Shown in pieces: positions 7,748-63,722 of a stretch of DNA of 64,000 bases. Origin of the DNA: a virus (lineage: Duplodnaviria; Heunggongvirae; Uroviricota; Caudoviricetes); IMG/VR virus record IMGVR_UViG_3300046008_000242, positions 32,001 to 96,000 of that record; one strand, 5' to 3'. Below the pieces are notes generated by a model. The model saw only the letters and a program-made list of their open reading frames with translations. It was not told where the DNA came from and did not search any database. Within the stretch, counting starts at the first letter, position 1. The number at the start of each line of letters is the position of its first letter. The position numbers and the translations under genes are program-made.

Positions 7748-7908
7748 ATAGGAATTCCTTATTATTGTGTATGGATTGTTTCTTTATTATTATTTATTAG
7801 ATTTTGTAAAGGATTCATATTCCTTTAGATTGTCGTATAGAAATGTTCTATACGATTGTATTTAATGACATTATTTTGTTGTAAAATAAATGATTATATG
7901 TATTTGAA

Positions 7909-8689
7909 TATATCCATTATTTGCTCGTTAATGAGCTCTAGTGGAACGTTTATGATTTATGCAACCAACTCTATGTCATGTATATTTTAGAGTTGTTAAA
8001 ATTGAGTAAAGAGATATCGAAGTAGTCTTGTGTGAATCTTTCGATATCCCAATCATCGAAAGAGACTTATCGATAATCTTAGACATCGAGTGTGTAATAT
8101 ACATGGAAAGATACTCCTTTCGAAATCTCTAATACTCCACTATGATAGACTATGTCGATCCTTTGAGTTATGTTCTTTAGGTCACTTTATATTACTTTTA
8201 TTAACTTAGTGTCTTCTATATTCTTATTTTAACGTATTATTTACATTCATTTACAACAACATTCCCATATAAAATCCTTCGACTCCATTTCAGATCCCGT
8301 TGAGAACCAAAAGTTCCTTCGGGATTTTTATTGGATACAATTTATCATTATTCATCTAAGAATAAACATTAAACCATCTGTTATTTGGAATATCTTCCAC
8401 TCTAATGGAATCTTTAATATACAATCCAATCAACTCTACATCATGTAAAATAAACGTTGCATATTCAACAATTATGATTGTTCCTTGTAAATATAACATA
8501 TCGAAACAGCCTTAAGATGTTCCTTTCGATATCTTAATCATCGAAAGAGTAATCTTAGACATCGAGCTTGTTATAATCAATTAAAGATACTTCTTGCCTT
8601 TTCGATAAAACTCCACTATGATAGACTATGTCGATCCTTTGAGTTATGTTCTAAATGCCATTTAATATTACTAAGGCGTTTATTATACA
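7909..8689. repeat. ~475-bp non-coding repeat family, array 1 (about 1.7 units)
   Basis: Invariant core TATGATAGACTATGTCGATCCTTTGAGTTAT at 8141-8171 and 8617-8647 plus shared flanking modules; no ORF. Confidence 0.93.
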
Positions 8690-10273
8690 TTAGAAATCAT
8701 ATACTTCAACTTTATCATCATCAAGACCATCATTAATATATCCTACAGGTAACATTTGTTGGTCGATATAATCCATTTGCTGATTATATAATTCTTTCCT
8801 GATATCGATATCTCCCATATCCTTGACGAAAGAAGTTGAACATAACCAACCAAAAATAACTAATGTCATTATCAAATCATCATGATTCGGAGGATCCGCA
8901 GAATAACTACCTTGTCTTTCGATGAACACAGAAAACTCCTGGATAATATCTGGGTCAAATATCAACAATCTCTTCTCCTCAATCAAAGATTTTAACATCA
9001 TACATCCTTGACGTTTAATCTTCTTGTCCATGTTAATACCCACTTCCATTGTCCCAGAAAACGATTCACATGGTATCTGTCCCTTAGGTGTCTTCTTAAT
9101 GGAAATCAAATTCTCGTATTCTAGATCGTCTTGGAGTATCTGCGCCACCTCCTTGGAACAATTAATCTCAACAATAATAAATGCGTAATTGTATTCCTTA
9201 CCAACTCGATATAATATATTAGGATATAACATAGGGGATATCTTATTATCTCTATACTTACCGACTACCTTGTATGGAAAATTGGTTACATCCATAATTG
9301 TAAATGCAGAGTAATCTCCACCTACACCCTTTGATGTATCTGCCGATATAATATATTGATGTCCTGGTATAGCACCTTCCTGTATATCTAATCCATCTCT
9401 AGAATAGATAAAAGGTATTGCTGACATTGATGATATAGAAGATGAATTAATAAGTGTCGCCGATGAACCCAGAAAACTCATCTCCACTTCTTGCATGTAT
9501 TGTAATTCTCCTAACAATTCTTTCTGTTGTTGAGCCCATTTCTCATCTCTATGTGGATGTTCGCTCCAATGAGCAGAAACTGGTATAAATCCATTTATAC
9601 CAAGTTGAGCTTCATTCCAAAATTTCCACCAATGATTATATCCTAATGGAGTAGACGATAAGATAATTTTCGTTGTTTTACCAGAAGAGATGGTGGGATA
9701 CACAGAAGCGAAGAAGGATTCAGCGATAGCATTAGGAATAATTCCGACTTCGTCTACGTACAGTAAATTCACAGATTTACCTCTGATTCCAGACGCGGAA
9801 GTTGCGGAAGAAAACACTTTAGATCCATTTTCCAATTCAAATGAACCTTTATTCCATTCTTTAACCCCTTGTTGTAACCATTTGGGTAATCCTTCAAACA
9901 TATCTTGGATACGAGACATGATTTCTCTACTGGCTGCTGCCTTATTGGCTAAAATGGCAACTGTTTTGGATTTATTGAAAATTACATAATGTAATATGTA
10001 AGATGCAGTAGTAGTAGTTTTTCCACCCTGACGGAAAAGTTGAATGATAGTCCTGTTATTCTCATGCATAGTGGTTATTATTCGTTCTTGATAACCAAAC
10101 AATTCGAAATGTATCAATCCGTAATCTAATGAAACAATCTTACAATAATTTTTTATAAAATAAATCGGATCTTGTTTACATTTAATGTATTCTTCAATCT
10201 GTTCTTGAGTGAAATCTATCGGGGCATTTGTTGATTTTAAATTAGTGTTGCCATTATATGATAACTCAACCAT
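8690..10273 (-). CDS. gp17: Terminase large subunit (T4 gp17-like)
   Basis: YNGNTNLK N-terminus (start 10273 preferred), RQGGKTT Walker A, YVDE Walker B, STPLG, DYSAF, HDDL. Confidence 0.97.
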   Translation of the reverse strand: MVELSYNGNTNLKSTNAPIDFTQEQIEEYIKCKQDPIYFIKNYCKIVSLDYGLIHFELFGYQERIITTMHENNRTIIQLFRQGGKTTTTASYILHYVIFNKSKTVAILANKAAASREIMSRIQDMFEGLPKWLQQGVKEWNKGSFELENGSKVFSSATSASGIRGKSVNLLYVDEVGIIPNAIAESFFASVYPTISSGKTTKIILSSTPLGYNHWWKFWNEAQLGINGFIPVSAHWSEHPHRDEKWAQQQKELLGELQYMQEVEMSFLGSSATLINSSSISSMSAIPFIYSRDGLDIQEGAIPGHQYIISADTSKGVGGDYSAFTIMDVTNFPYKVVGKYRDNKISPMLYPNILYRVGKEYNYAFIIVEINCSKEVAQILQDDLEYENLISIKKTPKGQIPCESFSGTMEVGINMDKKIKRQGCMMLKSLIEEKRLLIFDPDIIQEFSVFIERQGSYSADPPNHDDLIMTLVIFGWLCSTSFVKDMGDIDIRKELYNQQMDYIDQQMLPVGYINDGLDDDKVEVYDF

Positions 10274-11417: not shown

Positions 11418-11529
11418 GATTTTATATTTTCTTTATTGTAAAATTATACATATAGAAATGTTCTGTCACCCTTGAATAGTCGTTAATGAATATGTACACT
11501 CAGAAATAATATATCCATTAAGAAGTGTA

Positions 11530-12090
11530 TCAATAACATTCATTATTTGTACAATAATCCACTCTAGCGGAACGTTCTGTATATCATCCAATCAACTCTA
11601 TGCCATACAATTTAAACGAGCAGTAGTGAGGATTTATAGATGTCCATTGTATGATTGACATATCGAGAGAGTCTTAAACATTTCTTTCGATGTTTAATGT
11701 ATCGATAAGGTCATCTTAAACATCGAATCAATAATTACTGGAGTCTTAAACTCCTTTCGAAATGGTAGGAACTCCATTATGATAGACTATGTCGATCCTT
11801 TGAGTTATGTTCTAAATGGCATTAATATTACTTTAATGTTTTCTAGTGTCTTCCTCGACTTTATTATACAACATTCATTTAATCAATATTCCCATATAAA
11901 ATACTCGAAACAAAATCCCGTCAGATTTAAAGTTCTGACGGGATTTTTATTGGATACAATTTACATTATTTCAACATATAACATTCCTTAGAACATCCAT
12001 TATTTGCTCGTTAATGGACTCTAGTGGAACGTTCTATATACAGAGCAATCAACTCTATGTCATGTAAAATAAACGTTGTATAATGTCCAA
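11530..12090. repeat. ~475-bp non-coding repeat family, array 2 (about 1.2 units)
   Basis: Core at 11778-11808, hairpin 11912-11948, then the start of another unit to 12090. Confidence 0.92.
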
Positions 12091-12489
12091 TTATTTGCCA
12101 TCTACATAGGTTTTATATTCTTCAACAAGAAACGACATAGCTTCTTTACCCTTAGTTGATTTAAAGAAGATAGGAATATGACTGGCGATGACTGGGTCGG
12201 ACAACCATTTTAATTGTTCTGGATTTAAGACAGATGCGGCAAATTCATTTATCTTTTGTTCCAATTCAGAAACAGGAGGTTTAGGTTGTTCTACTGGAGT
12301 AGAGGGTTGTTGAGTATTTAATATCTTTTGTAATTCTTCTTGGACTGATTTTTGTACCATTTCTTGGATATTTGGTGAACTGGGAATTCCTCCTCCAATA
12401 TTATAATGATTATTCGATTGTTGTTGTTTCAATACATCTAATTGTTGTTGGAGAGCATCAATGTTTAACGGAGATAACGGATTGTACAT
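12091..12489 (-). CDS. Hypothetical Q/P-rich protein
   Basis: 132-aa ORF with AGGA RBS. Confidence 0.75.
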   Translation of the reverse strand: MYNPLSPLNIDALQQQLDVLKQQQSNNHYNIGGGIPSSPNIQEMVQKSVQEELQKILNTQQPSTPVEQPKPPVSELEQKINEFAASVLNPEQLKWLSDPVIASHIPIFFKSTKGKEAMSFLVEEYKTYVDGK

Positions 12490-33800: not shown

Positions 33801-36800
33801 TCAATATCTATTTTAACAGGACTGTTTACAGAATATTCTGTACGAACTGGGTTCAATAATTTAACAGATTCTGAGATAACCAAACCATATGAAAATTCAG
33901 GATAATCGATTGCTGGTTTAGCGACATCTGTTCCGACTGTCACAGATAATGTGATTACTCTATCATTTTGGAATACAAGATCTTCATGAGGTTTCAAATT
34001 AATGGAAGCATTACCTAGTGCATCTACTCTGAAATTGAATGAAGATAGATTTGTAATTGGAGTAGTGGTACTTCCAGATACAACATTAGATAAATCGAAA
34101 CTAGAAGTACCACCAGAAACTACAATAGAACCAGTATAAGAAACATTTGGATTTCCATTTTGTACATTAAATTTCATGGATAATGTTTCACCTTCTCTGA
34201 CCACATAAGAAGATGGAGAAATGGTGTAAACCGCAGATGGTTTTGGTATTTTAATTTTGGTTACTGGATTTACTGCAGCAACATCATTAACGATTACAGA
34301 AATTGGAGATTCGTCTGTATAACGTAATGATTGAGAAATACTATAAATTGTTTCTGCCGTTGATGAAGAGAATTGGATACCAGCTGGAGTATCGGTAAAT
34401 GTAACATTAAATTTAGAACCATTATACATTGCTGGAATATAAATGTTACCTTGATACGAACCATTTTCATCTGTGAATTGGTCCGCGCTAGATTTTTGTC
34501 CAGAAACTTGCCAACCTTTTTCTTGTAATTCTCCATCAAAGAAATAATAGATTTTTACATTAGATAACATTCCAGTTATCTTAACAGCAACAACATTTTC
34601 TCTTGTGGAACCTTGTACCAATTTAACTACGTTGTAGGTTTGACCTTGAACAACTTTGTTTTGTTGAGAATTTACTTCCAAGAAATCTTTTGTATTGTTG
34701 ATATCAGTTACTACGTTAGTCGTTTGGTCGCCAGTCTTCCAAGACCCAAAAATCGTGACTTTGGTTCTTTCTGTATTTTCATTACCAATTAATAATTGTC
34801 TTGCTTCTGTTGTATCGATAGCATTTTCTTGGAACACTGTGTAATCTGAATCTGGTGTTAGAATTACATTACCTTTTGAATTGTATACACTGTATGGATT
34901 AACGGAAATTGATGTTGATGCCATCATCTGTGCAGTTAAAATAGATTCAGTGAATGGTAAGGTAATTGTGTTATCGTGTACGGAAGAAGTGATTGGATTA
35001 TTATTAGGACTTAATCCTGCTGTATCTAATAGGAACCCTGGACGCATCTCATTTTTTTCAAAATCGATTGAGAATTTGAAATTAGAATTATCATTAGAAG
35101 GAGCCCCAATTAAAACTTCATCATTGGTTACATCAGCTACATTATATCCTTTGAATGAATCAACTAAGAATCCATTGTTGAACAACGGAGTTCCTGTGTT
35201 ATCCGTGAATGTTTTAGATGCTGTTTCTTTCTCCAATAATGATAGAGAAGTGTAGTATTCCACATTTTCCAAACGTTTATCTAATGCACCAATATCTCTC
35301 ATGGTGTAACGTTTATTTTTGTACATCAATGTTTTAACATTAGAACTGGAATCTGTATAAGGTTCATATGTGAACGAACAGATTTCCATTACGTCTTTAC
35401 CAGCGATTGGTGTAATCGGTGAATCGTAAGAAGGTTGACCTTGTAATAATGTAAATTCACCAGCCTTATCAAGAACCAATTTATCAATTCGTTGTAGATA
35501 ATAATCCAAATTAGTTGTTATTACTTGATTCGTCAATGGTAATGTAAATGCATCAAATGTATTAGAATCTTTACGTTGGATTGGTCTAAAATCAATACAG
35601 TTTCTTAATTTATATTCAATACCATTATCATCAGAGTATTTTGGCAAATTAGAATAAGGAATAGAAGATTCATATGAATTTACAACTAGACCACCATCAC
35701 CAGAATGTTCAAAATAATCTACAACTATCAATATATTTTCAGAAACATTTGCTTCTTTAATCTTCTTAATGGTCGCATGTAGATATGCCGAATTGGTTTG
35801 ACCATTTTGGATAGAATATTTAGAGGAAACATCATTCAATTCAGTACCCAACGTGTATCCAGAAATTGTATATGCTTTACCATCCATAATTACGATAGAA
35901 TTTGCTGGATAATTGTATGTAGAAGAATACGTCAAAGTAGGAACTGTAATAGGATCCCCAGAATACGAATATACACCAACAACTTTACTCACGTCAGATA
36001 CACCAATAGAACCATTAGCAAAATCGGGTGTATATTGGATAGCAACACCATAATTCTTTTTTAATGTTTTTGTTCTAGATGGAACACCAGAATTGTAAAT
36101 TGTGGTAGTAATGTTAACAGTACCGTTGAATGAACTATCATTAAAATTCAATTCTGCGGTCGAGCTGGAACCAATCGGATTGTTTACAGTTAAAGTAGCC
36201 AATGATGCATCAATAATACTACCCACAGGAAATGCTGTTGGATTAGATGACGTGATTACATTAACAATATAATTTTTATTGATTGAAGACCCAGTAGATT
36301 CATCGTAATCTTTGTATGATGAACCAGAATTGATTGTAGCAACACCATTATATACATTCACTGAATTGTAAGTGTATTTGGATGCATATCTTAAATTATT
36401 GATTGATTTAACTGTGATGTTTGGAATTTGGAACACCAACAATTGTTTATTTGTATCAATGATGGATTTACTAATTGGAATTAGATGAGATACGAAATTA
36501 GAATCATTTTTCCATGTAATATCAAAAACTTCATTGAATTTATATCCTTTAAAATTAACATCATCTAAGAATAATTTGAATACACCAAGACTAGAAAATT
36601 CTAGACCGATACTGGTGGCAGAACCGATAACATCACCAGTTGAATCCAAAAACGTTAATTCTGTTCTAGAATTTGCCGAAGGTAAGAAACTATTATCGGA
36701 TACAGACACTTCAATGTAATTACCATATTGAGCAGAAACGATATGGTCTGATTCCGTTAAGAATTCTCTTGATTTATCTAATTGGATGAAAGTGGTTCTG

Positions 36801-37996
36801 GTTTTATTTACTTCGTATCCTTTGATATATGCCTTACCAGAAGAAATTGATAATTGTAATTTCGAATTATCTGCATCATCATAGATTGTTGGCAATAAAC
36901 CTTCTACAATATAATTACCAGATTCATCATATGTTCTTCTGGCAAATTCTTCTGCAATGTTAGAATAAATTGGAGTTCTGTTATCAATTGTCACAACACC
37001 ATTACTGATATGAGACAAATCAATAAAATCTTCATTTGAAATCAATTTATCTTGGTAAGATTTTGTTCCTAATTGTAATGTAATTAGATATCTATCTGCA
37101 CCTGGAGCCGCAAAGTTATTTGAACCAAAAGATGGGTCTAATAATGTTGAGTCTTCATCAGATGTCACGATAGATTCAATTGGAGTTAGACCAATTACAG
37201 CAGATACGCCAATTTTATAGAAATTATTGGTTGCTGTTTCTAATTGGATAATCTTTTCTAATGTAACAGATACATTTGATTCAATTGACGCAACAGTGCC
37301 TACGTAATTAGAAGTGAAAATATCATCTCCAACTTTTAATTCAGTTAAGAATTTTGTATCTAAACCAGCGATTACAGTACCACCCTTTGTGAATGAAATA
37401 GAACCTTCTAGGAAAGTGTCATATTTCTTAACAATTGTGGTCTGCGGAGGACAATAGACAAAAGTGTTTTTTGTATAGAATATACCATCATTGATATGGA
37501 ATAAAACAGAATTTCCAGGAACATCCGCAGTCTCAGCGGTATAAAGTAATACACCTTCTTTTGTGTAAATTTGTATTGCAGAGTTTGCGTCTAAATCAAC
37601 AGCATTAGTTTTTGTGACACCACCGTCGATTAATATAGCAAAAAATGTGGTTAGATCCGAACCAGATACTGGAGATACATGTTTAATCAAGAAGATTCTG
37701 TTATCAGAAGTTTTGAATGTCATGTCAACCAATTTAGTTAAATCGATTGGTAAAGAAGTGTTTGTTTTAATTTTGAAGTAAGAAACAAAATCATAGAAAT
37801 GTTCTCCACCAGATACGACAGAACCATCTTTGAAAATATGATTGGCAAATTTAGCCGTTTGATTTTTTAAGATTGATTGGATCTGCGTGAATTCTCTGGC
37901 TTGGCAAGCAACACCTGGTTTGAATAAAATTTTATGATAATTTTTGGTTTCATCAAAATCATCAAAGTAAGGTGATATATTGTGATTCATTGTCAT
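27827..37996 (-). CDS. Giant virion structural protein (DUF4815/VrlC-like) with a long beta-rich central insert
   Basis: 3389 aa; PYFDDF..K.YHKILFKPG..QARE.TQ.Q, APGADR, ARRTYDESG, LENVEYYTSLSLLE, DPVAQTF, FAVKVV..S...P..R.LRAIA. Confidence 0.9.
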   Translation of the reverse strand: MTMNHNISPYFDDFDETKNYHKILFKPGVACQAREFTQIQSILKNQTAKFANHIFKDGSVVSGGEHFYDFVSYFKIKTNTSLPIDLTKLVDMTFKTSDNRIFLIKHVSPVSGSDLTTFFAILIDGGVTKTNAVDLDANSAIQIYTKEGVLLYTAETADVPGNSVLFHINDGIFYTKNTFVYCPPQTTIVKKYDTFLEGSISFTKGGTVIAGLDTKFLTELKVGDDIFTSNYVGTVASIESNVSVTLEKIIQLETATNNFYKIGVSAVIGLTPIESIVTSDEDSTLLDPSFGSNNFAAPGADRYLITLQLGTKSYQDKLISNEDFIDLSHISNGVVTIDNRTPIYSNIAEEFARRTYDESGNYIVEGLLPTIYDDADNSKLQLSISSGKAYIKGYEVNKTRTTFIQLDKSREFLTESDHIVSAQYGNYIEVSVSDNSFLPSANSRTELTFLDSTGDVIGSATSIGLEFSSLGVFKLFLDDVNFKGYKFNEVFDITWKNDSNFVSHLIPISKSIIDTNKQLLVFQIPNITVKSINNLRYASKYTYNSVNVYNGVATINSGSSYKDYDESTGSSINKNYIVNVITSSNPTAFPVGSIIDASLATLTVNNPIGSSSTAELNFNDSSFNGTVNITTTIYNSGVPSRTKTLKKNYGVAIQYTPDFANGSIGVSDVSKVVGVYSYSGDPITVPTLTYSSTYNYPANSIVIMDGKAYTISGYTLGTELNDVSSKYSIQNGQTNSAYLHATIKKIKEANVSENILIVVDYFEHSGDGGLVVNSYESSIPYSNLPKYSDDNGIEYKLRNCIDFRPIQRKDSNTFDAFTLPLTNQVITTNLDYYLQRIDKLVLDKAGEFTLLQGQPSYDSPITPIAGKDVMEICSFTYEPYTDSSSNVKTLMYKNKRYTMRDIGALDKRLENVEYYTSLSLLEKETASKTFTDNTGTPLFNNGFLVDSFKGYNVADVTNDEVLIGAPSNDNSNFKFSIDFEKNEMRPGFLLDTAGLSPNNNPITSSVHDNTITLPFTESILTAQMMASTSISVNPYSVYNSKGNVILTPDSDYTVFQENAIDTTEARQLLIGNENTERTKVTIFGSWKTGDQTTNVVTDINNTKDFLEVNSQQNKVVQGQTYNVVKLVQGSTRENVVAVKITGMLSNVKIYYFFDGELQEKGWQVSGQKSSADQFTDENGSYQGNIYIPAMYNGSKFNVTFTDTPAGIQFSSSTAETIYSISQSLRYTDESPISVIVNDVAAVNPVTKIKIPKPSAVYTISPSSYVVREGETLSMKFNVQNGNPNVSYTGSIVVSGGTSSFDLSNVVSGSTTTPITNLSSFNFRVDALGNASINLKPHEDLVFQNDRVITLSVTVGTDVAKPAIDYPEFSYGLVISESVKLLNPVRTEYSVNSPVKIDIDTNNSIDMTFTSTNCEQDRVITLTVKKDGSIVTGANVTSFHTNTSAPNQNIKLPLSVGDFLERNGAFEFIFIDDLGVTISKKILVVGKYAKKTFNMSTSGDTFGRFIPGQSVTFKLNTNLYDFSTYDSEQVPYLLEVSEGGSVYSPIASYSGKFTISSSNGYFSKTDRNVSISSTGILDKQYTIRLTLTDSNKGGGAQSLLYVDKTQETFTLSVKRAGNELAPNSTLISGDILTCTLTSSYGSVYASKSNSEKLVNISVSNLTPGLYNLSTPTTYLNGSGVATFNVTIKNFIGNLEDMLLIISTSCNGVTNNSVPLTLLKAAKKSVSTQFTTTGDADLATVSSSSSPTFKVKYASTNVNPTDIVNWYLKVIDSSGNVLEGLDGTSESPTSGSSVLIDGQVLRGTGALSSLSTPKTFTMKSSAPNNIKIIAGIKHPETNNEDTLIVNASTASFTISKSGCDDKILDDGEAVTYTIRALDSSVSRNISWSLSSVNNSIGLSTLSSSTLSGTATLSVGGSTTVTFSRNLPTGLSSDHQLLLTVVDNTTGTTKITTKTDQEISIKKLGASFVIKFYDSLTKAEIQNVVGVLSTDKPKKIDVKIQSASASIQSSLKYNISSSLIDVTTDLNGSKVSTPTSLEDFFSADKTITRTIYVTNNSSTPVSSSSLSASIKVDCVSFKSTYSDTSSVVTGSNSLKLQNAPSLRESIVLSNVSGKSPVSMGYNVVENYNISSNIADELNTYILIKPSDPYSVLTAAAGDFVVQSNYNTLANVTPTNSNIVSTFGTSNALYYSIPNFNSGVSIKLNTNAKNANDSYNLTVIQIKTDNTNISSSNVVKSIVSKTGVKSYKLTTSNPSVSINETGLVSITPNNFASTDAHVLKIFNYGALNLSSDVSIDVYYVNSSNVSSTASITSIDSSGNITPAVTFYGVASVNIKNKTGKAGDIKIAVSNGSTTGDINLPTQGVRNITADVTNTTQDKITSGSVSVNNASEDYFLMKIWDNASNAVISTGITYYDKFQNTLTVDASGFVKLQNFVDADGNRSFPFYYKITAGYITGASKEVRFFFKDFNGVSTEFNRTVSSSTTETGSFSITSDSDTQATAVGTKLSNGTLKKVSTITLTTSNVANAGGVLRLTFFVSNANIKSCYADGSGAVLSPGVVDYVVPKGNSTKTFYYVNDTPLDKMILNESNTVTVSGKSLDPGILSSNPSSTSYFINTSIPYRNLSFKQYELTVNEVVEGESFNVLVTDTIKDGELSTLKYNSKLVEYVGGSNSGTVTKKRTEFVDTWSASFKAINDNVTNLTSSSALFSVGDVSKSLVVKEAPPSPASINITALQTSDVFETAGEVSFKVETNYLPSGTVIPFGWTVGDNVVNVTSVQIVGVSTEFKNIANPSFSVGGSSGSQYYSATISIKFTPNYSVNKGSSITLFVNGSNIKSNTSSSVTIPVNVSPTTSGNKLTQAINILNKDKEIEYTPSISFSEISAAEKKQLALGYKYEFHIPYTVKISPSGFTGTTSLSVTVPSAGNVISRGSATLDVNSFSGNTHSGTVTLSKGYHGDFDIKISAVVNGKTTIGSYKTSLGKPFSLDPVAQTFYISPEQFPNGLFLSKADIFFYSKPSDLTIPVWIEMRKTINGYPSSDSKLTYSRVELNNSDVNIPSSLVGIITPTPTPFNFSDPVYLAPGEYSIIVGSTSKEYRVFVGELGQIDVSDGKLISENNPDGSVGSFFMSQNARTWNADQMKDLMFKLYKCEFDINSNQEVILEMKPNNSNFEVDIIHLNSPENVVPGTSSKYSVSLTGNYIDYVDVENNTDTLLTERTKPASAFKLKTILSSHDRNVSPIIQKHTMNTKFIHNLINSKLDLIKLETDPLDGSALSKYVTKKVTLSEGFDATGIRVILDVNRQYGTDIEVYVKMINNEDYSNFKGKDYTLIPLSGTKSYSKNNDDFIIDEYKLDNVSYVYGDTTFNSFKSFAVKVVMYSDNPAKVPRVRNLRAIATS

Positions 37997-39604: not shown

Positions 39605-40054
39605 TTATGCGATCGTAATTACCCAAGAAATTGTAATAGAATCCCCTGAAGCCTTATTGACCACAGGAAACGTTGTTCTAGATAACATATTGTTTGTTGT
39701 ACCAGTTAGATGATTAAACAAACCTGCTTCTGTGATGGCACCAGTAGATACACCGGCACCAAAAGAAGCAGTAAATGTTACACTATTATCTACAACAGTT
39801 GATGAAGAAAGTTCTATTCTATTGCCGATTTGAGTTTGTAATGATGTGTTGGATACAGAAGGACTATTTGTTCCTGAACCGACAGCCATATGAGAAATAG
39901 ATTGGGTTGGATTAACTAATCTATTGGCAATAAGAGCTTTACCTGTGGTAACAACTAAATTTGGAATTCTAATGGTATCAGTTACAACACCAAATTCATT
40001 AGTTTTGACGATTGTTAACGAACCGTTGATAGATGCCGATGATTTAATTTTCAT
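39605..40054 (-). CDS. Small baseplate/tail protein
   Basis: NLVVTTGK, MAVGSG, ITEAGLFN, FPVVNK...D motifs. Confidence 0.75.
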   Translation of the reverse strand: MKIKSSASINGSLTIVKTNEFGVVTDTIRIPNLVVTTGKALIANRLVNPTQSISHMAVGSGTNSPSVSNTSLQTQIGNRIELSSSTVVDNSVTFTASFGAGVSTGAITEAGLFNHLTGTTNNMLSRTTFPVVNKASGDSITISWVITIA

Positions 40055-40061
40055 GTGTTTC

Positions 40062-41573
40062 CTAGAATGTGTATATTGTCAAACCTTGAGAATAATCTGA
40101 TGCGAAATAATCATCTAATGTATATGATAATGTTCCATTTCGTAATTTTATACTACCACCAGAATCATTTACGTTTGCCGTGTCTGTTAATGTTTTTGTT
40201 ATATACGTTGTTATACTTTCTAAATTATTTATTGTGTCGATTAACGGTTTTATAATTTCATTGAAAGTAGTGTCGTTTAATGTTGATACCAGATCTTGTA
40301 CAAATAATTTATAATCGAAGATGGCACTATTCACTGACGCAGACATATCTATTTCATTTGTAATAGAATATTCCGAGAACATGGCGTATCCGGCTGGATT
40401 TAAAATTCTTTTGACTACATCTTTGAATTTATCAATGTTTTCTGAGATTTGGATTACATAGGAGAACAATTGAAAATAATGATTATCTTGTAACACAAAG
40501 GTGTCGGATAAGAACCCGTTGGTGGAAGCATAATAACCTGGATAACGTTGTAATACACCAACATTAAATTCTACATATGCCACGTCCGCTTCATCAAATG
40601 TTCCTTTGTCGGTAGATAAATCGAAGTAAGATTCAGAAATAATCTCACCAGCGTAATCATCCGCAGAAAAATCAATAGAATACCATTGTTTAGAGAATTG
40701 TAATAATTCTTGGAAACCATTGGTGTTTTCCGTTACATTAGGAAATTCCGATACAACTACATCAGTGAATTTAGATATTACACTAGTGGAGAAATCAGAT
40801 TTAAATCCTCTACCAAAATCAAATATCTGTATTTTTTGTATAGATCCTAATTGGTCTGTCTTAACGATTTTAATTTTAGCATTTTCGCCTTCACCACCCT
40901 TTACATTAAAGATTTGACCTTCTTTGAAATTGAAACCTTTCTTTTGTATTTTACATGTTGATAGACAGGGTTGTATAACACCCATTGTAGATTCAAATGA
41001 AATCAAACATCCAACAGATACATCAGAATAGTAGAATGGTTCAAAGAATACTTCATACGTTCCATTTTCCAAATTTTTAATTCGCGTTACAAATACATCA
41101 AAACTTTTTTGAGGTGTTGTAATTGTTACATAATTACCAGAAAATACATTAGGATCGCCTGACATGGGTAACAATATAACGGATACAGGTTGGATCCATC
41201 TACCATCAGATGCCTTTAGGATTAGATCCCTTGGGTAAGATATGTTTATTTCTTTACCAAACATATGACGAAAAAGAATTCTAAATGCTTCTTCCGTACC
41301 CTTAGAAGAATAGAATTCTTTTAGATGATGGTTTATGAAATGGTCTTCTTTTACCGTAGTGCTTGGTAATGTTGAACCTAATTGGTATTTTATATGTTGT
41401 ACAAATTCTTCTAAATTGTCATCTAATGAAGATATGTTATCAAACGTTTTGAATCTAGATTGTTCGTTGAATTTATAATATAATTCCAAAAATGATATGA
41501 ATTTGGAATAAGTTGGATACGAAAATTCTGGGAATTGTGATAATACAACGGAAGATAATGGTACATTATTCAT
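40062..41573 (-). CDS. Baseplate wedge initiator (gp7-like)
   Basis: FY.SKGT..AFRILFR..FG, SDG.W, LQDN.YFQ.FSY, L.PAG; lies between gp6 and gp8. Confidence 0.8.
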   Translation of the reverse strand: MNNVPLSSVVLSQFPEFSYPTYSKFISFLELYYKFNEQSRFKTFDNISSLDDNLEEFVQHIKYQLGSTLPSTTVKEDHFINHHLKEFYSSKGTEEAFRILFRHMFGKEINISYPRDLILKASDGRWIQPVSVILLPMSGDPNVFSGNYVTITTPQKSFDVFVTRIKNLENGTYEVFFEPFYYSDVSVGCLISFESTMGVIQPCLSTCKIQKKGFNFKEGQIFNVKGGEGENAKIKIVKTDQLGSIQKIQIFDFGRGFKSDFSTSVISKFTDVVVSEFPNVTENTNGFQELLQFSKQWYSIDFSADDYAGEIISESYFDLSTDKGTFDEADVAYVEFNVGVLQRYPGYYASTNGFLSDTFVLQDNHYFQLFSYVIQISENIDKFKDVVKRILNPAGYAMFSEYSITNEIDMSASVNSAIFDYKLFVQDLVSTLNDTTFNEIIKPLIDTINNLESITTYITKTLTDTANVNDSGGSIKLRNGTLSYTLDDYFASDYSQGLTIYTF

Positions 41574-43382: not shown

Positions 43383-44336
43383 TTACCTCGTTCTTTCTAA
43401 TGTTAGATCTAATGTAATTGGCACTTTCGATTCAACAATCGAGTACGTTATGGATATGTTATAATTATGTTCAACAATTTCCACAGAAATATCATTAACA
43501 TTTGCTCTGGGTTCATAATTTCTAATCACATCAGCAATGGTTCTTTTTATCAATAGATTGGTGACCAGAGAAGGTGTGTCGAATAATAAATTCATACATT
43601 GCGAACCAAGTTTGGAATTAAACGGACGTTCGAAATTGATGGTTTGGATTAAATGTTTTATGGAAGTAGATACGGCATTACTATTTGTTTTGAACATAAT
43701 GTCTGCTGGAGTAGCAAATCTATATTCCATATTGTTGGCATGAATGTTCCTACCAATAAGATACATTACAACATTTTGCATAATTTGTGAAATATCATCA
43801 CTTCTTGTTTTTATTGTGATGTAATCCATATTGTTGTAGATAGTCATCTCACCTTCTAAAGGTTCAAAATAAACACTAGACGGATCTATACCGATTATGT
43901 TATATGGTATCTTTGTACCATCAGGAACATTTTCCGTTTGTAACGTGAAAATTATCTCAGAACCTTCTTGTAATACATCAGCATTTACGTATAATGTATA
44001 TTTCTCATCTAGATTGTCCAATTTGGTGGAAGTGGTCGATGATGATTTAGAGGATAAATCTGTTCCAATTTTATCATACATTATGGTTGATGTTGAGAAT
44101 AAAGCTGGTACATATAGTTCTAATTCTGAATCAGAGATAATGTTTTTTATCTTACCGATAAATGAGTTACTTACGTAAAGATTATCATCTATTTTCAAAT
44201 ATCGAGTGAATTCTGTGTCTTTACCAACAACTATGTTAGATGAATTGTTATATGAAATTAAACCAACACCTTTATATCGTTCCAATGATGAAGGATTTGG
44301 TATTAATGTTAAATCTAGATCTTTGTATATTGTCAT
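43383..44336 (-). CDS. gp25: Baseplate gp25-like protein with ~190-aa internal insertion
   Basis: YKDLDL N-terminus; ERPF...GS, I.NYEPR, LERTR C-terminus. Confidence 0.85.
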   Translation of the reverse strand: MTIYKDLDLTLIPNPSSLERYKGVGLISYNNSSNIVVGKDTEFTRYLKIDDNLYVSNSFIGKIKNIISDSELELYVPALFSTSTIMYDKIGTDLSSKSSSTTSTKLDNLDEKYTLYVNADVLQEGSEIIFTLQTENVPDGTKIPYNIIGIDPSSVYFEPLEGEMTIYNNMDYITIKTRSDDISQIMQNVVMYLIGRNIHANNMEYRFATPADIMFKTNSNAVSTSIKHLIQTINFERPFNSKLGSQCMNLLFDTPSLVTNLLIKRTIADVIRNYEPRANVNDISVEIVEHNYNISITYSIVESKVPITLDLTLERTR

Positions 44337-44447
44337 AATAGTATTGATTCGATTTGTTTTATATTATTTAATGCATTTCTCTAACATTTATAATATATCC
44401 ATTTTATGTGGATATATTGTTGATTAAACAATCTTTTCACTTTGACC

Positions 44448-45700
44448 CAATCAACTCTACATCATGTAAAATAAACGTTGTATATAGTCCAAATATGGAT
44501 GTCTACTGTAAATATAACATATCGAAAGAGTCTTAATGTCAATAGATGAAGATGTTCGACATCGAAAGAGTAATCTTAGACATCGAGTATGTTATTAACA
44601 GAGTCTTAAACTCCTTTCGAAATCTCTAATACTCCATTATGATAGACTATGTCGATCCTTTGAGTTATGTTCTTTAGGTCATTTAATATTACTATATCAT
44701 AACTTAGACGTTTATTATTCATATTATAGACATTCATTTACAACAATATTCTCATATAAAATCTTTCGACTCCATTTAAGCATCCCACCAGATTAGTTTC
44801 TGAGTGGGATTTTTATTGTGTATAATTTACATTATAATAACATAGATTATTCCTTATAGCATCCATTATTTGCCCAATAATCCACTATAATGGAACGTTA
44901 TGTATACAGAGCAATCAACTCTATGTCATACATTTTTATCGTTGTTTAAACTCCAAATATATCCATCTTATGATAATTCAACATATCGAAAGAGTCTTAA
45001 GATGAATCCTTCGATGTTATTGATTCGTCTTAAGCATCGAAAGAGTAATCTTAGACATCGAGTATGTAAACATCAACGTCTTAAACTCCTTTCGAAATGG
45101 TAGAATATCCACTATGATAGACTATGTCGATCCTTTGAGTTATATCCGTTGTCTGCATTTAATTGTTTTTAATATTACTAAGACTCTTATTATTCATTAA
45201 CTAATCATATTAAGACTATCATTTACAACAATATTCCCATATAAAATCCTTCGAACCTCATTTCATCCTGTTTAGAATAATATCTAAACAGGATTTTTTA
45301 TTGGGCGCAATTTATCAATATCCAATCAAGAATATACATTAAACCATCTATTATTTGTCCAATAATCCACTCTAATGGAACATTCCATATATCATCCAAT
45401 CAACTCTACATCATGTATAATTTACGTTGTTTAAACTCCAAATATAGATGTCTACTGTAAATTCAACACATCGAAAGAGTCTTAAGATGTTTCTTTCGAT
45501 ATCTTAATCATCGAAATAGTAATCTCAGACATCGAATGTGTAATATACAAGGAAAGATATTCCTTTCGAAATCTCTAATACTCCATTATGATAGACTATG
45601 TCGATCCTTTGAGTTATGTTCTTTAGGTCATTTAATATTATTATATTCTAGTGTAACTTAGACCCTTATTATACAATACATTTTATTGTAAATAATAGTA
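44448..45700. repeat. ~475-bp non-coding repeat family, array 3 (about 2.7 units)
   Basis: Cores at 44638-44668, 45113-45143, 45587-45617; hairpins at 44782 and 45265. Confidence 0.94.
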
Positions 45701-45728: not shown

Positions 45729-46211
45729 ATGGTAGACATAAAATTCACTAATGTATATTCAGACGAATTGCTAGAGATATACATTAAGATGCGTAAGGCT
45801 AGATATGTTGGTTCCAATAAACATTATTCATCTAAGAGAGCAATAAAGAAACATCTTAAACATATTATCTTACAAAGAAGACAAACAGAAAATCTCTTGG
45901 ACATAATGATTATGACAATTGAAGATAAGATAGTCGGTATGAGTTTCCCTAGATTGACCAAAGATATCGATAAGATATTCTATGATATAGATACAACATG
46001 TATTAAGGTTGGTGCGATATTCGTGGATCCAGATTACAGGAATCAGAACATCGGATATGACGCATGTAGTCAGTTCTTTAAATTGTTCCCAGAATATACT
46101 AAGGTTTGGACTTCTAGAAAATGTAATACCGCGTCTATTGCTCTGGCATTAAAATTGGGATTTGAACGGACTCATGATAAAGGAGATTACGTTATCTTTA
46201 AAATGAGATAA
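45729..46211 (+). CDS. GNAT-family acetyltransferase
   Basis: IFVDPDYRNQNIG and N.AS..LA.KLGF motifs. Confidence 0.85.
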   Translation: MVDIKFTNVYSDELLEIYIKMRKARYVGSNKHYSSKRAIKKHLKHIILQRRQTENLLDIMIMTIEDKIVGMSFPRLTKDIDKIFYDIDTTCIKVGAIFVDPDYRNQNIGYDACSQFFKLFPEYTKVWTSRKCNTASIALALKLGFERTHDKGDYVIFKMR

Positions 46212-46215
46212 AATA

Positions 46216-46282
46216 TCTTTCGATGATTGGGATAACATTTATAATAGATTTCAAGTTGGTGCACCAATGAATTTAAATCAAT
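46216..46282 (+). promoter_or_regulatory. Putative early/middle promoter with conserved leader
   Basis: TCTTTCGATG-N14-TATAATAGATTTCAAGTTGG...CCAATGAATTTAAATCAA, repeated at 63655-63722. Confidence 0.7.
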
Positions 46283-47163: not shown

Positions 47164-48354
47164 CTAATTCATATAGAATTTATCAACGGTATGTTTCAAT
47201 AATTTTTCTAATGCAATTTGTAATTCTAGCACATTTAAACCCCTTTTCCACTTTCTATCCACTTCCATTATACCAGTATAATTTGTTATATTATAAAAAT
47301 CCTTGATTTCTTTGATATATGAAATCAAGGATCGTTTATCATCTATTGATTTAAACACAGAACTAATCTCGTTTATTCTATATTCATATTCTTTTATCTC
47401 GATTTTACGCTCATCTAAATATTTATAGAACTTGACTGATCCTTCCTCCAGTTTTTCATCATCGACTTGTTTCCAATTAGAGTTATTAATCCCCATAATT
47501 TTACTTGGGTTGGTGACATTATATTTTTCTATATCATCTAGAATTTGTAGGACTAATGGTCTAGTAAATTTTATTTCCAAGATATGTTTCCTTATTTCTT
47601 TACATTCTGGAGTTTGCATATTACTAATGTAACCAGTTTTCTTAAAATTGGTATCTTTACCCTTTTGGATGCATTCTGGAGTTTGAGATGGAGTATAATA
47701 TCCAGTTCTTTCAAAACATGTATCTTTACGTTTTTGGATACATTCTGGATTTTTCATATTATGTGTATATCCGGTTTCCTCAAAATAACTTTGAGAATAT
47801 TGTTCTCTTAATTTCGGATTAGCTAAATTACTAGTGAATCCAGTTTTCTCAAAAACGATATCCTGTCGGGTTTGGATACGTTTTGGGTCTTTCATATAAT
47901 GAGTATATCCAGTTTTCTCAAAATGCGTATTTCTACATTTTTGGACACATTCTGGATTTTTCATATGATGATATGCACTTATTGATATCTTCAACTCTTC
48001 ATATTCTTCTTCGTTGATAAATTTATGTTTACCATCGGTGCATAATCGTCCAAATGCATGAATCATCTTAGCGTGTAAATTACGGGTTAATCCCATCTCT
48101 ATTAACAATTGGTGACATCTGTAATGTTCTCTTGCTGATAGATAGGCATAATTCAATTTATCAGTCACTCCACCCATCTTGAATGATCTAGGTAATATAT
48201 GATGTTCTTCTGCGTACCCTAAAATTACATCCGCTTCTTTTTTAGTGGATGCTCGAATCCTGGCATTAGATACGATGGAGATATACTCTGCTGTTTGTTC
48301 ATTATCTGAACATAATTCGATTATTTTATCGATATAGATATTATTGCTGGTCAT
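47164..48354 (-). CDS. Mob-like HNH homing endonuclease with ~24-aa tandem repeats (copy 1)
   Basis: EEHHILPRS..GG....NYAYLSAREHYRCH; repeats of MKNPEC.QK...T.FEKTGY. Confidence 0.85.
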   Translation of the reverse strand: MTSNNIYIDKIIELCSDNEQTAEYISIVSNARIRASTKKEADVILGYAEEHHILPRSFKMGGVTDKLNYAYLSAREHYRCHQLLIEMGLTRNLHAKMIHAFGRLCTDGKHKFINEEEYEELKISISAYHHMKNPECVQKCRNTHFEKTGYTHYMKDPKRIQTRQDIVFEKTGFTSNLANPKLREQYSQSYFEETGYTHNMKNPECIQKRKDTCFERTGYYTPSQTPECIQKGKDTNFKKTGYISNMQTPECKEIRKHILEIKFTRPLVLQILDDIEKYNVTNPSKIMGINNSNWKQVDDEKLEEGSVKFYKYLDERKIEIKEYEYRINEISSVFKSIDDKRSLISYIKEIKDFYNITNYTGIMEVDRKWKRGLNVLELQIALEKLLKHTVDKFYMN

Positions 48355-48588
48355 AAAATTCCTGTGAGTTTGATTAGAGACAACGGAAGTGTGGACTTCG
48401 CGGTTGTCATTTTTATTTAGTTAAATCGCGTTAAGAAGATAGATTATTCCAAATCCCACCAGAAATTTAATCTGAGTGGGATTTTTATTGGATTCAATTA
48501 TACGTATTCATTCTTAGGATGTATTAATACTTCATCTAAAATAATTCTTTAGATTAAACAGAAATGCATTATAATAGAATCATCTTAT

Positions 48589-48804: not shown

Positions 48805-48926
48805 TATGCAATCTATACATTAATTGTGTCTTAAATTCCATTTAAATGGACGTAGTGGAACGTTTAATGTATATGTCAATCAACTCTACAGGATGTTTAT
48901 TTTAAATCACACTAGAGGCAAATTAG

Positions 48927-49844
48927 ATGGAAATTATATGTGAATCAGAATTTGGTTCTAGATTGTATGGGTTATCCACTCCAGAATCAGACTATGACTA
49001 TAAAGGTGTCATCTTACCAACTAGAGATGAAATCTTACTTGGAAGAACATCTTACCATATCGATAAGTCAACTAATACCAGTTCAACAAAAAACTCTAAA
49101 GATGACGTCGACAGAACCTATTACTCGTTACAATACTTTATTGATATGGCATGTAAGGGAGAAACTGTAACCTTAGACCTCCTCCACGGCAGTCCTGATA
49201 AATTATTACATGAATCTGATATGTGGAGATTCATTGTATCTAATCGCCATCGGTTCTATACAAAGAGTATGAAATCATACATTGGTTACGTCAGAAAACA
49301 ATCAGCCAAATATGGAGCCAAAGGTTCTAGACTTGGTGAGATCGAACGAGTATTAAATGTAATCAATAACATGAAAGATTCTCAGACTGTATCTGATGTT
49401 GAATTAAAGGAATCAGATGTTGTAAGATGGATTGATTATAAGGATAACAGATATTTGGAGGTTTGTGGTAGTAAATATCAAGACAATCTTAAATTGGTTC
49501 ATCTGAAGAAATCATTACAGAACCATTATGATATTTACGGGGAACGATCCAAATTAGCCAAACAAAATGAAGGTGTAGATTGGAAGGCATTGTCCCATGG
49601 ATTTCGTGCTGGTATCCAAGCAAGAGATATTTACTTGAAAGGAGGGTTTGAATATCCGTTGGCAGAATCGAAGTTTCTTTTGGACGTAAAACAAGGTAAG
49701 ATAGACTTCAATGTATTTGAACCAATGTTAGCCGAATTGGTTGAAGAAGTTACATTATTGGCTGGTAAATCAGATTATCCAGAAACTGTTGACAGAACGT
49801 TCTGGGATGATTTCATTAGAGAATGTCATTTAACTAGATTTTAA
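48927..49844 (+). CDS. Pol-beta-fold nucleotidyltransferase (T4 NrdC.11-like)
   Basis: FGSRLYGLSTPESDYDYKG and DWKALSH motifs. Confidence 0.85.
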   Translation: MEIICESEFGSRLYGLSTPESDYDYKGVILPTRDEILLGRTSYHIDKSTNTSSTKNSKDDVDRTYYSLQYFIDMACKGETVTLDLLHGSPDKLLHESDMWRFIVSNRHRFYTKSMKSYIGYVRKQSAKYGAKGSRLGEIERVLNVINNMKDSQTVSDVELKESDVVRWIDYKDNRYLEVCGSKYQDNLKLVHLKKSLQNHYDIYGERSKLAKQNEGVDWKALSHGFRAGIQARDIYLKGGFEYPLAESKFLLDVKQGKIDFNVFEPMLAELVEEVTLLAGKSDYPETVDRTFWDDFIRECHLTRF

Positions 49845-51432: not shown

Positions 51433-52760
51433 CTAATTCATATAGAATTTATCAATAATATGTTTCAATAATTTTTCTAATCCATTTTGTAATTTTATCA
51501 CATTTAATCTCGTCCAGTTTCTGCTATTCGTTTCCATTATAACAATATGATTTGTTATGTTATAAAAATCCTTGATTTCTGAGATATACGAAATCAAGGA
51601 TTGTTTATCATCAGTGTATTTCAATGTAGAATTAATCTCGTTTATTCTACATTCGTATTCCTTTATCTTAATTTTACGTTCATCTAAATGTTTATAGAAC
51701 TTAACCGAACCTTCATATAGTTTTTCATAATCGACTTGTCTCCAATTAGGTCCATTAATTCCCATAATTTTTCTTGTATCGATAACGTTATATTTTTCTA
51801 TGTCTTGTTGAATCTGAAGAACTAATGGTCTAGCATATTTTATTTCCAAGATGTGTTTCTTCTTTTCTTTACATTCTGGAGTTTTCATATGATGTGTGTA
51901 CCAGTTTCCTCAAAACACGTATCTCTACGATTTTGGATACATTTTGGATCTTTCATATAATGAGTGTACCCAGTTTCCTCAAAACTAGAATCTCTGCGAT
52001 TTCGGATACATTCTGGATTTTGCATAGGATGATTGTATCCAGTTTTCTCAAAATACGTATCCTGACGCTTTTGGATACATTCTGGATTTTTACCAGGATT
52101 ATCGTATCCTGTTCTAGCAAAATGGGTATCTCTACTCTTTTGGATACATTCTGGATTTTGCATATTATGCGCGTATCCAGTTTTCTCAAAATATATTTGA
52201 GAATATTGTTCTCTTAATTCTGGATTGGCAAAATTACTAACATATCCAGTTTTCTTAAAATGGATATCTCTACTCTTTTGGACACATTCTGGATTTTTCA
52301 TATGATGAGTGTATCCAGTTTTCTTAAAATGGGTATCTCTACTCTTTTGGACGCATTCTGGATTTTTCATATGATGATATGCACTTATTGATATCTTCAA
52401 CTCTTGATATTCTTCTTCGGTCATGAATTTATGTTTACCATCTACGCATAATAATCCAAATCCGGAAATCATCTTAGCATGTAAATTACGTTTTAATCCC
52501 ATCTCTATTAACAGTTGATGGCATCTGTAATGTTCCCTTGCCGATAGATATGCATAATTCAATTTATCTGTTTCTCCACCCATCTTAAATGATCTAGGTA
52601 ATATATGGTGTTCTTCTGTATAACCTAAAATTGATTTTGCTTCTTTTTTAGTGGATGCTCTGATTCTGGCATTAGATACGATGGAGATATACTCTGCTGT
52701 TTGTTCATTATCTGAACATAATTCGATTATTTTATCGATATAGATATTATTGCTGGTCAT
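51433..52760 (-). CDS. Mob-like HNH homing endonuclease with tandem repeats (copy 2), 1-nt frameshift near 51901
   Basis: Near-identical N-terminus to 47164-48354; ORFs 51885-52760 and 51433-51888 join if one base is added at the CC run 51901-51902. Confidence 0.85.
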
Positions 52761-56195: not shown

Positions 56196-56235
56196 TCCTT
56201 TTAATTTTAATGAAATCAAGTATAATAGATTTCAA

Positions 56236-63654: not shown

Positions 63655-63722
63655 TCTTTCGATGTCAAAGATAACCTTTATAATAGATTTCAAGTTGGAA
63701 GAATCCAATGAATTTAAATCAA
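63655..63722 (+). promoter_or_regulatory. Putative early/middle promoter with conserved leader
   Basis: Second copy of the 46216-46282 motif. Confidence 0.7.

Follow-up and report, generated by a model that had tools for sequence, protein, structure and literature searches.

A probable gene-less regulatory cassette with promoter- and terminator-like modules, stacked at module boundaries of a T4-like jumbo phage genome

We describe here a family of intergenic repeat units in a 64,000-nucleotide stretch of phage DNA (the window), which corresponds to bases 32001-96000 of the 249,362-bp IMG/VR phage record IMGVR_UViG_3300046008_000242 (genome label G000). Positions are those of the window unless the genome is named. 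The window contains genes with PHROG matches to tail sheath, large terminase and baseplate wedge genes, and gp6 of G000 shares 39% identity with gp6 of Pelagibacter and Methylophilales T4-like myophages. Based on these gene names and the gp6 identity, we regard G000 as a distant T4-like jumbo phage. The repeat units are about 460 bp in length, contain no gene and are stacked head to tail. Array C (44379..45678, + strand) occupies the divergent gap between a gp25-like baseplate gene (43383-44336, - strand) and the gene of a 160-aa acetyltransferase-like protein (45729-46211, + strand), and it is formed by the units C1 (44379-44830), C2 (44848-45316) and C3 (45332-45678), the last of which lacks a terminator. 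Tandem Repeats Finder reported the same region as a tandem array (44447-45646, period 485, 2.5 copies). A 31-bp core, TATGATAGACTATGTCGATCCTTTGAGTTAT, occurs in six exact copies in the window (8141, 8617, 11778, 44638, 45113 and 45587, all on the + strand), while none of 100 shuffled sequences contained any match to the 31-mer; the six identical copies noticed in the original prediction were thus confirmed at every position. We suggest that the repeat is probably a composite, ORF-less (ORF, open reading frame) regulatory cassette of this T4-like jumbo phage, stacked at the boundaries of large genome modules.

The order of modules that had been described for the units is present in every aligned unit. 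Module 1 is a promoter-like element, termed P_A, with the pattern TGGAAY-N15-CAATCAACTCTA and a small inverted repeat 5' of it. It is followed by a TCGA-rich block, by a second promoter-like element (P_B) whose predicted -10 hexamer forms the first six bases of the core, by an AU-rich body, and by a hairpin with a T run. In unit C1, the CAATCAACTCTA box is found at 44448..44459 (+ strand, as are all elements of the three arrays) downstream of a degenerate TGGAAY half, P_B at 44615..44668 (TTTCGA-N17-TATGAT; core 44638-44668) and the terminator at 44782..44814. The corresponding elements of unit C2 are P_A at 44863..44923, P_B at 45090..45143 (core 45113-45143) and a terminator at 45265..45300 with a perfect 12-bp stem and six Ts. 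Unit C3 comprises P_A (45348..45408) and P_B (45564..45617; core 45587-45617); no terminator follows, and the next ATG (45729) lies on the same strand.

The window contains two other arrays, both around the terminase gene. Array A (7890..8735, + strand) consists of a full unit, A1 (7890-8346), and a unit cut off after the core, A2 (8360-8735), which nhmmer located at 39890-40346 and 40360-40735 of G000. It lies between the tail sheath gene (5534-7747, - strand) and the large terminase gene (8690-10315, - strand) and is antisense to both. In unit A1, P_A (7914..7973) reads CCATTATTTG..TAAT..TGGAAC-N15-CAACCAACTCTA with one box mismatch, P_B (8118..8171) comprises TTTCGA, a 17-bp spacer and TATGAT, with the core at 8141-8171 and then the initial transcribed box, and the terminator (8294..8329) is a hairpin followed by five Ts. 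Unit A2 has P_A at 8378..8438 and P_B at 8594..8647 (TTGCCT-N17-TATGAT; core 8617-8647), after which no terminator is found, and it points antisense into the terminase gene. Array B (11522..12095, + strand) is located between a 383-aa endonuclease-like ORF (10266-11417, - strand) and a 132-aa ORF (12091-12489, - strand). It contains the full unit B1 (11522-11964), with P_A at 11540..11600, P_B at 11755..11808 (TTTCGA-N17-TATGAT; core 11778-11808) and a terminator at 11915..11948, and a partial unit B2 (11980-12095) that has only P_A (11997..12057). The large terminase gene (541 aa, - strand) and then the 383-aa ORF with its endonuclease-like C-terminus (8690-12489) are a pair bracketed by the direct arrays A and B. 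Elsewhere in G000, an HNH-type gene (10810-11481) lies between two arrays.

When we extended the analysis to the whole 249-kb genome, 18 exact copies of the core were found, and a hidden Markov model built from full units (nhmmer) located about 30 complete or partial units, which form runs of one to five at 12 intergenic sites. Neighbouring arrays lie about 20-40 kb from each other along the genome. The repeat family is present in a single related phage, IMGVR_UViG_3300046005_000547 (G001; 234,735 bp, gp6 88% identical), which has about 28 units at nine sites; the family is thus conserved in a relative, and a lack of such conservation was among the conditions that the original prediction had named as speaking against it. 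The fixed period of 474-476 bp, on which that prediction had also relied, applies to the window copies only, as the tandem spacing is 361-568 bp in G000 and 426-585 bp in G001. The claim that the units hold no conserved ORF was borne out: the ORFs 3' of the first module are 0-96 aa in length and mutually unrelated, and a small protein as the product of the units was rejected on the same grounds.

Sequence searches placed the family in these two phages. A search of IMG/VR with the box pattern returned G001 and contigs 99-100% identical to it and no others, the exact 31-mer was found in no other IMG/VR contig, and the P_A pattern matched only in the same phage. The blastn search with an array or unit gave no match in 50,697 phage records or in plasmids, and no match to the box pattern was found among metagenome contigs or 185,579 prokaryote species genomes. 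Four 18-mer matches were dismissed as chance, since they lie within a coding sequence. Contigs from more distantly related phages, with gp6 32-56% identical, contained neither a unit nor a long-period tandem array, although these contigs are short fragments and give weak evidence of absence. These distributions bear on the idea that the unit is a selfish, non-autonomous element, similar to a miniature inverted-repeat transposable element (MITE), that spread through the phage genome. Many copies, the lack of an ORF and the existence of solitary partial copies are what such an element would show. However, no inverted repeat pairs the unit ends, neighbouring units join head to tail with no target duplication between them, every copy lies between genes and most follow the direction of transcription, the solitary pieces look like functional promoters before genes, and the family is absent from the prokaryote genomes, plasmids, other phages and metagenome contigs searched. 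Given the lack of terminal inverted repeats, target duplications and copies elsewhere, we rejected the MITE-like element, whose probability we consider close to nil.

The core is best understood from P_B, which has a sigma-70-type layout of a -35 hexamer, a 17-bp spacer and a -10 element TATNNT. In all 48 P_B copies of both phages (48/48) the spacer is exactly 17 bp, while the spacer sequences are many and different. The -35 hexamers are TTTCGA (35 copies), TTGACT (9) and TTGCCT (4), and the -10 elements are TATACT (19), TATGAT (18), TATAGT (10) and TATGCT (1). Based on this pattern of variation, with its fixed spacing, -35 hexamer and TATNNT, P_B reads as a sigma-70-type promoter, and the first six to nine bases of the core are explained as its predicted -10 element. 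The 31-bp core is then made up of the -10 element, a few bases after it and the conserved box at the beginning of the transcribed region, CTATGTCGA-NNN-TTTSAGTTA. The same layout is found in a general promoter class, tCTTTCGAt-N16-TATAATAGA, which places the remaining core at about +1 to +20 of the transcript. In both genomes, no other motif is as enriched upstream of ORFs, and there are dozens of single sites of this class, most of them 35-70 nt ahead of a start codon. Examples in the window lie at 46240-46248, 48570-48578, 56221-56229 and 63679-63687, with about 30 more sites in the genome. In about ten copies, the TATAATAGA promoter leads into a nearly identical leader that contains a small hairpin (tttcaagTTGGAagaaTCCAAtgaa...), and an ORF follows 50-70 nt downstream.

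The core had been called invariant, which holds for the 18 exact G000 copies and does not hold for six more units of the same genome that carry variant alleles (TATAGT...CAC...TTAG in three units and TATACT...CGT in three). In G001, seven units carry the allele TATACT..GTCGACGGTTTGAGTTAG and most others carry a GTCGA(CG/TG)TTTCAG type. Across both phages, TAT..T, TAGACTATGTCGA and TTTSAGTTA are fixed, and the remainder is uniform within a genome and different between genomes, which points to concerted evolution over a constrained subset of core positions. The 35-nt segments flanking the core differ by 30-57% between copies while the core stays fixed. In one copy, at 10472-10502 of G000 (outside the window; L089:1073-1103, - strand), the quasi-palindromic core 13-mer TAGACTATGTCGA is swapped for its exact reverse complement with unchanged flanks, suggesting hairpin-mediated template switching or indifference to orientation. 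The core also holds ATG TCG AYN NTT TGA (44648-44662 and every core copy), a mini-ORF of four codons whose start would lie at or next to the predicted transcription start and could be leaderless; it is kept in 24/24 G000 copies and 7/24 G001 copies, the other G001 alleles having no stop codon. The idea of an anti-Shine-Dalgarno seed was dropped, because UCCUUU is a feature of the major allele that neither the other alleles nor G001 retain. The TAGACTATGTCGA box and the CTTTCGAT boxes are candidate factor-binding DNA boxes.

P_A was called invariant in about 30 units per genome, the exceptions in the window being the box mismatch of A1 and the degenerate TGGAAY half of C1. It also occurs as a solitary box 35-47 nt before the ATG of unrelated genes, two in G000 (a nucleotidyltransferase gene and an ORF of 96 aa) and three in G001. 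In the window, the box (48877-48888) of a solitary P_A (48812..48901, + strand) ends 38 nt before the ATG of the nucleotidyltransferase gene (48927-49844), indicating that P_A is used outside the repeat units. The gene of a gp55-like late sigma factor (G000 171853-172698, outside the window; PHROG 234, E 3e-39) has a solitary P_A about 125 nt upstream and then a TATAATAGA promoter. This is the tandem order found inside the repeat units. From its sequence context, P_A is probably a second phage-specific promoter class with prereplicative timing, and the phage lineage would then have three candidate promoter classes.

The TCGA block is made up of CTTTCGA/TCGAAAG boxes, which vary in number and occur in either orientation, and this box is the -35 element of the general promoter class. 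When we compared the block with shuffled sequences, it folded slightly better (z about -1.4), and its sense strand gave on average a weaker fold than the antisense strand (+1.0 kcal/mol, p 0.09). Since the sense strand is not favoured, the inverted TCGA repeats are read as DNA boxes, not as an RNA hairpin. The TCGA density is 15 per kb in the arrays and 3 per kb outside. This fivefold excess over the genome background would fit decoys or sinks, in which strong promoters, present by the dozen, and over 100 CTTTCGA boxes titrate the host RNA polymerase or sigma factor or a box-binding phage regulator, or insulate modules, the RNA itself being functionless. Full promoter-terminator units in tandem without a product and the location of arrays at module boundaries point the same way. 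However, this explanation is indirect, no binding factor was identified, and it leaves the conserved +1 to +20 box unaccounted for. We consider it quite improbable as the purpose of the arrays, and it overlaps with the regulatory cassette more than it competes with it.

The boxes, repeated in both orientations and thus resembling iterons, also raise the question of replication origins. In the T4 origins oriF and oriG, which form R-loops, an AT-rich region lies downstream of a prereplicative promoter; these origins are few, unique in sequence and not terminated repeats. The arrays could be origins of this type, with a promoter reading into an AT-rich unwinding region to give an R-loop primer. 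P_B is indeed followed by a very AT-rich, unstructured stretch, as at the T4 origins, and the spacing of the arrays round the genome would be suitable. On the contrary, about 25 copies of promoter plus AT tract per genome, in many repeat units closed by efficient-looking terminators, are unlike the few unique origins of T4. In addition, GC skew tracks gene orientation with no extra switch at the arrays, the same box forms the normal -35 element of dozens of single promoters, and no initiator protein was indicated. An origin function of the arrays is therefore very doubtful in our view.

Each complete unit ends in a predicted intrinsic (Rho-independent) terminator, a hairpin with a T run that is present on the unit strand only. 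In the alignment, 97.4% of terminator cells are paired compared with 85.5% in shuffles, a value that 0/500 shuffles reached, and the number of double-change cells (24 versus 7.3 in shuffles) exceeds that of all 500 shuffles. When the partner columns were slid, pairing fell to <=51%. The hairpin is thus predicted to be an intrinsic terminator with support from covariation. The A-rich tract CATATAAAATCC, directly 5' of the terminator, is conserved in both phages. Another A-rich tract, CCCATATAAAATCC (45236-45250), lies about 15 nt 5' of the hairpin and is complementary to the 3' arm and U run of the terminator (45290-45304), as in other units; it could serve in protection of the 3' end or in competition with the terminator.

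The remainder of the transcribed part behaved differently. The body 3' of the core, 130-190 nt in length, is AU-rich, indel-rich and unstructured, and its fold is no better than that of shuffles (z about -0.3). RNAalifold gave no consensus pairs in the TCGA block, the leader from P_A to the core or the transcript body, and a new structured noncoding RNA (ncRNA) family was therefore rejected, as the terminator is the only part with a conserved, covarying fold. The search against Rfam gave no match in the window at the gathering score, nor was there one by E value, the sole sub-threshold match having an E value of 0.47 and 19 bits against a cut-off of 42.8, and no tRNA or tmRNA was found. The original prediction had stated that no known RNA family is matched, which agrees with these results, as does the lack of terminal inverted repeats. 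It had also offered a multi-copy ncRNA transcription unit, of which one part stands: the promoter signatures and the covarying terminator support a transcription unit, while the missing consensus fold and the lack of a sense-strand advantage speak against a structured ncRNA.

These results also bear on whether the units are genes for multi-copy, trans-acting sibling small RNAs (sRNAs). P_B would then drive an RNA of 150-200 nt with an invariant 5' end as a pairing seed or protein site, the arrays would give a high dose, and recombination at the arrays would be a by-product. Each internal unit has the promoter, conserved 5' end, variable body and terminator that this requires, the core is fixed between its divergent flanks, and the CATATAAAATCC tract before the terminator is kept in both phages. 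In Vibrio, the sibling sRNAs Qrr1-5 share an invariant stretch of about 32 nt, each has its own promoter and terminator, and they have conserved stem-loops and known targets or chaperones. The units resemble them in being multiple short transcription units with an invariant segment and a variable remainder, but they lack a conserved fold, their invariant part extends into the promoter, and their alleles are not the same in the two phages. Moreover, the body is without consensus structure, the putative seed varies between phages and alleles (TCC, CAC, CGT, CGG, a 1-nt deletion, G to C), and the last unit of most multi-unit arrays lacks a terminator. Thus we regard sibling sRNAs as an unlikely product of the arrays.

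The position of the arrays in the genome was examined by whole-genome blastn of G000 against G001, which revealed large colinear blocks with ends at arrays and modules of 17-39 kb. Block M2 (G000 12.3-39.8 kb) is inverted between two oppositely oriented arrays, blocks M4, M5 and M6 (G000 77.7-177 kb) are each inverted and changed in order, and array C is the junction of blocks M3 and M4. All six G000 breakpoints overlap arrays (6/6), compared with 0/20000 random placements doing so. The partner ends in G001 mostly adjoin arrays, with two exceptions 2-3 kb from the nearest array. In both genomes, the arrays are oriented as would be expected if inversions had occurred between inverted arrays and a single transposition between direct arrays. 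These breakpoints support the recombination scaffold that had been among the functions first proposed for the repeat. At the orthologous array beside the gp25-like gene, the number of units is three in G000 and five in G001. No significant linkage was found between the segments that flank the core on its two sides (Mantel r 0.10 and 0.02), showing that the units are thorough mosaics. A recombination hotspot exactly at the core was not demonstrable, since linkage is weak throughout the unit.

Based on these observations, we suggest that the regulatory cassette works as follows. The final unit of most multi-unit arrays breaks off 60-90 nt past the core and has no terminator, and the array is co-directional with the next gene at 17/21 sites. 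Internal units would give short terminated transcripts, and the last unit of an array, having no terminator, would let its promoters read into the downstream module. Homologous recombination between arrays, which are long similar stretches in direct or inverted orientation, could invert or reorder whole modules and leave a promoter array before each. We infer that such recombination caused the rearrangements between G000 and G001. Since each module keeps a promoter array before it, this also suggests why shuffling at such sites is tolerated.

Here, we need to consider several points that weigh against this proposal. First, firing of P_A and P_B and their prereplicative timing are predicted from sequence alone. 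Second, P_B of the window units is missed by a simple scan for TTGACA/TATAAT, as TTTCGA fits only 3/6 positions, and the P_A factor was not found: there is no match to MotA, AsiA or sigma region 4, and the sole sigma-like gene is gp55-like. Third, promoter function leaves unaccounted for the conservation of about 20 nt past the start and the retention of up to five gene-less units in a row. Fourth, 4/21 sites point antisense into late genes around the terminase, and the antisense arrays A and B have the same layout in G001. Finally, only two distinct genomes carry the repeat family, so that the association of breakpoints with arrays comes from a single pair of genomes. A further proposal takes the arrays as a system in their own right and not as a by-product. 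A phage-encoded factor acting at the quasi-palindromic start box TAGACTATGTCGA...TTTSAGTTA might switch about 25 cassettes simultaneously by antitermination or shut-off, or catalyse site-specific exchange between arrays, or else about 20 short RNAs might act as a phage-encoded sibling sRNA family on the host. We put this forward with little confidence. If there were such a system of site-specific exchange, the phage population would carry interconvertible module orders.

The arrays are likely spots of misassembly and of isomeric genomes, which is a warning for assemblers and annotators, and the gene-less units in up to five copies together with the conserved +1 to +20 box are concrete targets for experiments. 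The window also contains repeats of another kind. Tandem repeats of 69 bp at 47601-47785 and 51870-52377 lie inside two homing-endonuclease-like ORFs (47164-48354 and 51885-52760, both on the - strand) and encode 23-aa repeats whose number differs between the two ORFs. The structural region of the window holds a single ORF of 3389 aa (27827-37996, - strand).

The original prediction had ranked the repeat as the best candidate for an undescribed system, and this was not supported, because systems of the same kind are known. Among the closest are the promoter-early and promoter-middle stem-loop cassettes (PeSL and PmSL) of the T4-type phages RB49/phi1, T4/PST and KVP40/nt-1 (PMC2839356, PMC4122927). 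PeSLs are conserved promoter-terminator linkers at rearrangement points, proposed to serve homologous recombination that keeps gene regulation, and their promoter, terminator and mini-circle activity was shown experimentally (PMC2839356, PMC4122927). Each is a short single intergenic motif of stem-loop, promoter, Shine-Dalgarno sequence and ATG, flanking small ORFs in hyperplastic regions and shuffling single genes (PMC2839356, PMC4122927). The repeat described here is likewise a composite intergenic motif of promoter and terminator, recognized in our case by sequence, with a lineage-specific promoter sequence, in a T4-like phage and at rearrangement points between relatives. However, its unit is about 460 bp long and has two promoter-like elements, a box cluster, a transcribed spacer of 130-190 nt and no ORF, and the units are stacked up to five and mark the ends of 17-39-kb modules. 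The order also differs: here the terminator is followed by P_A, and P_B comes about 290 nt further, whereas the classical order is found only at some single TATAATAGA promoters. Several of these come directly after a terminator tail as in PeSLs, and the TATAATAGA promoters with the conserved leader look like classical PeSL-type cassettes. In addition, an internal unit precedes the next unit rather than the Shine-Dalgarno sequence and ATG of an ORF, and only the last unit adjoins a gene.

The other close counterpart comes from the Campylobacter group II phages CP21, CP220 and CPt10, in which the repeat regions RR1-RR4 separate four modules that are inverted between relatives (PMC4546147). Their units of 72-86 bp have a 13-nt core and two arms, each genome has four such regions, and promoters or terminators were not reported as part of the units (PMC4546147). 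As in these phages, the modules here are inverted or reordered between relatives, the number of units varies, some arrays enclose genes and single units occur elsewhere in the genome; the differences are units of about 460 bp, an anatomy of transcription signals and 12 sites. The blastn search of the 50,697 phage records revealed no sequence similarity of the units to PeSLs or to the Campylobacter phage repeats. Thus repeats that had no assigned anatomy in Campylobacter phages have a counterpart here that reads as promoters and terminators, and the PeSL idea that regulatory linkers allow shuffling is extended from small genes that move singly to entire modules of 17-39 kb. This extension concerns a T4-like jumbo phage that is uncultured and distant from the examples known in coliphages and vibriophages. 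The arrays work like both PeSLs and the Campylobacter repeat regions and are a member of neither.

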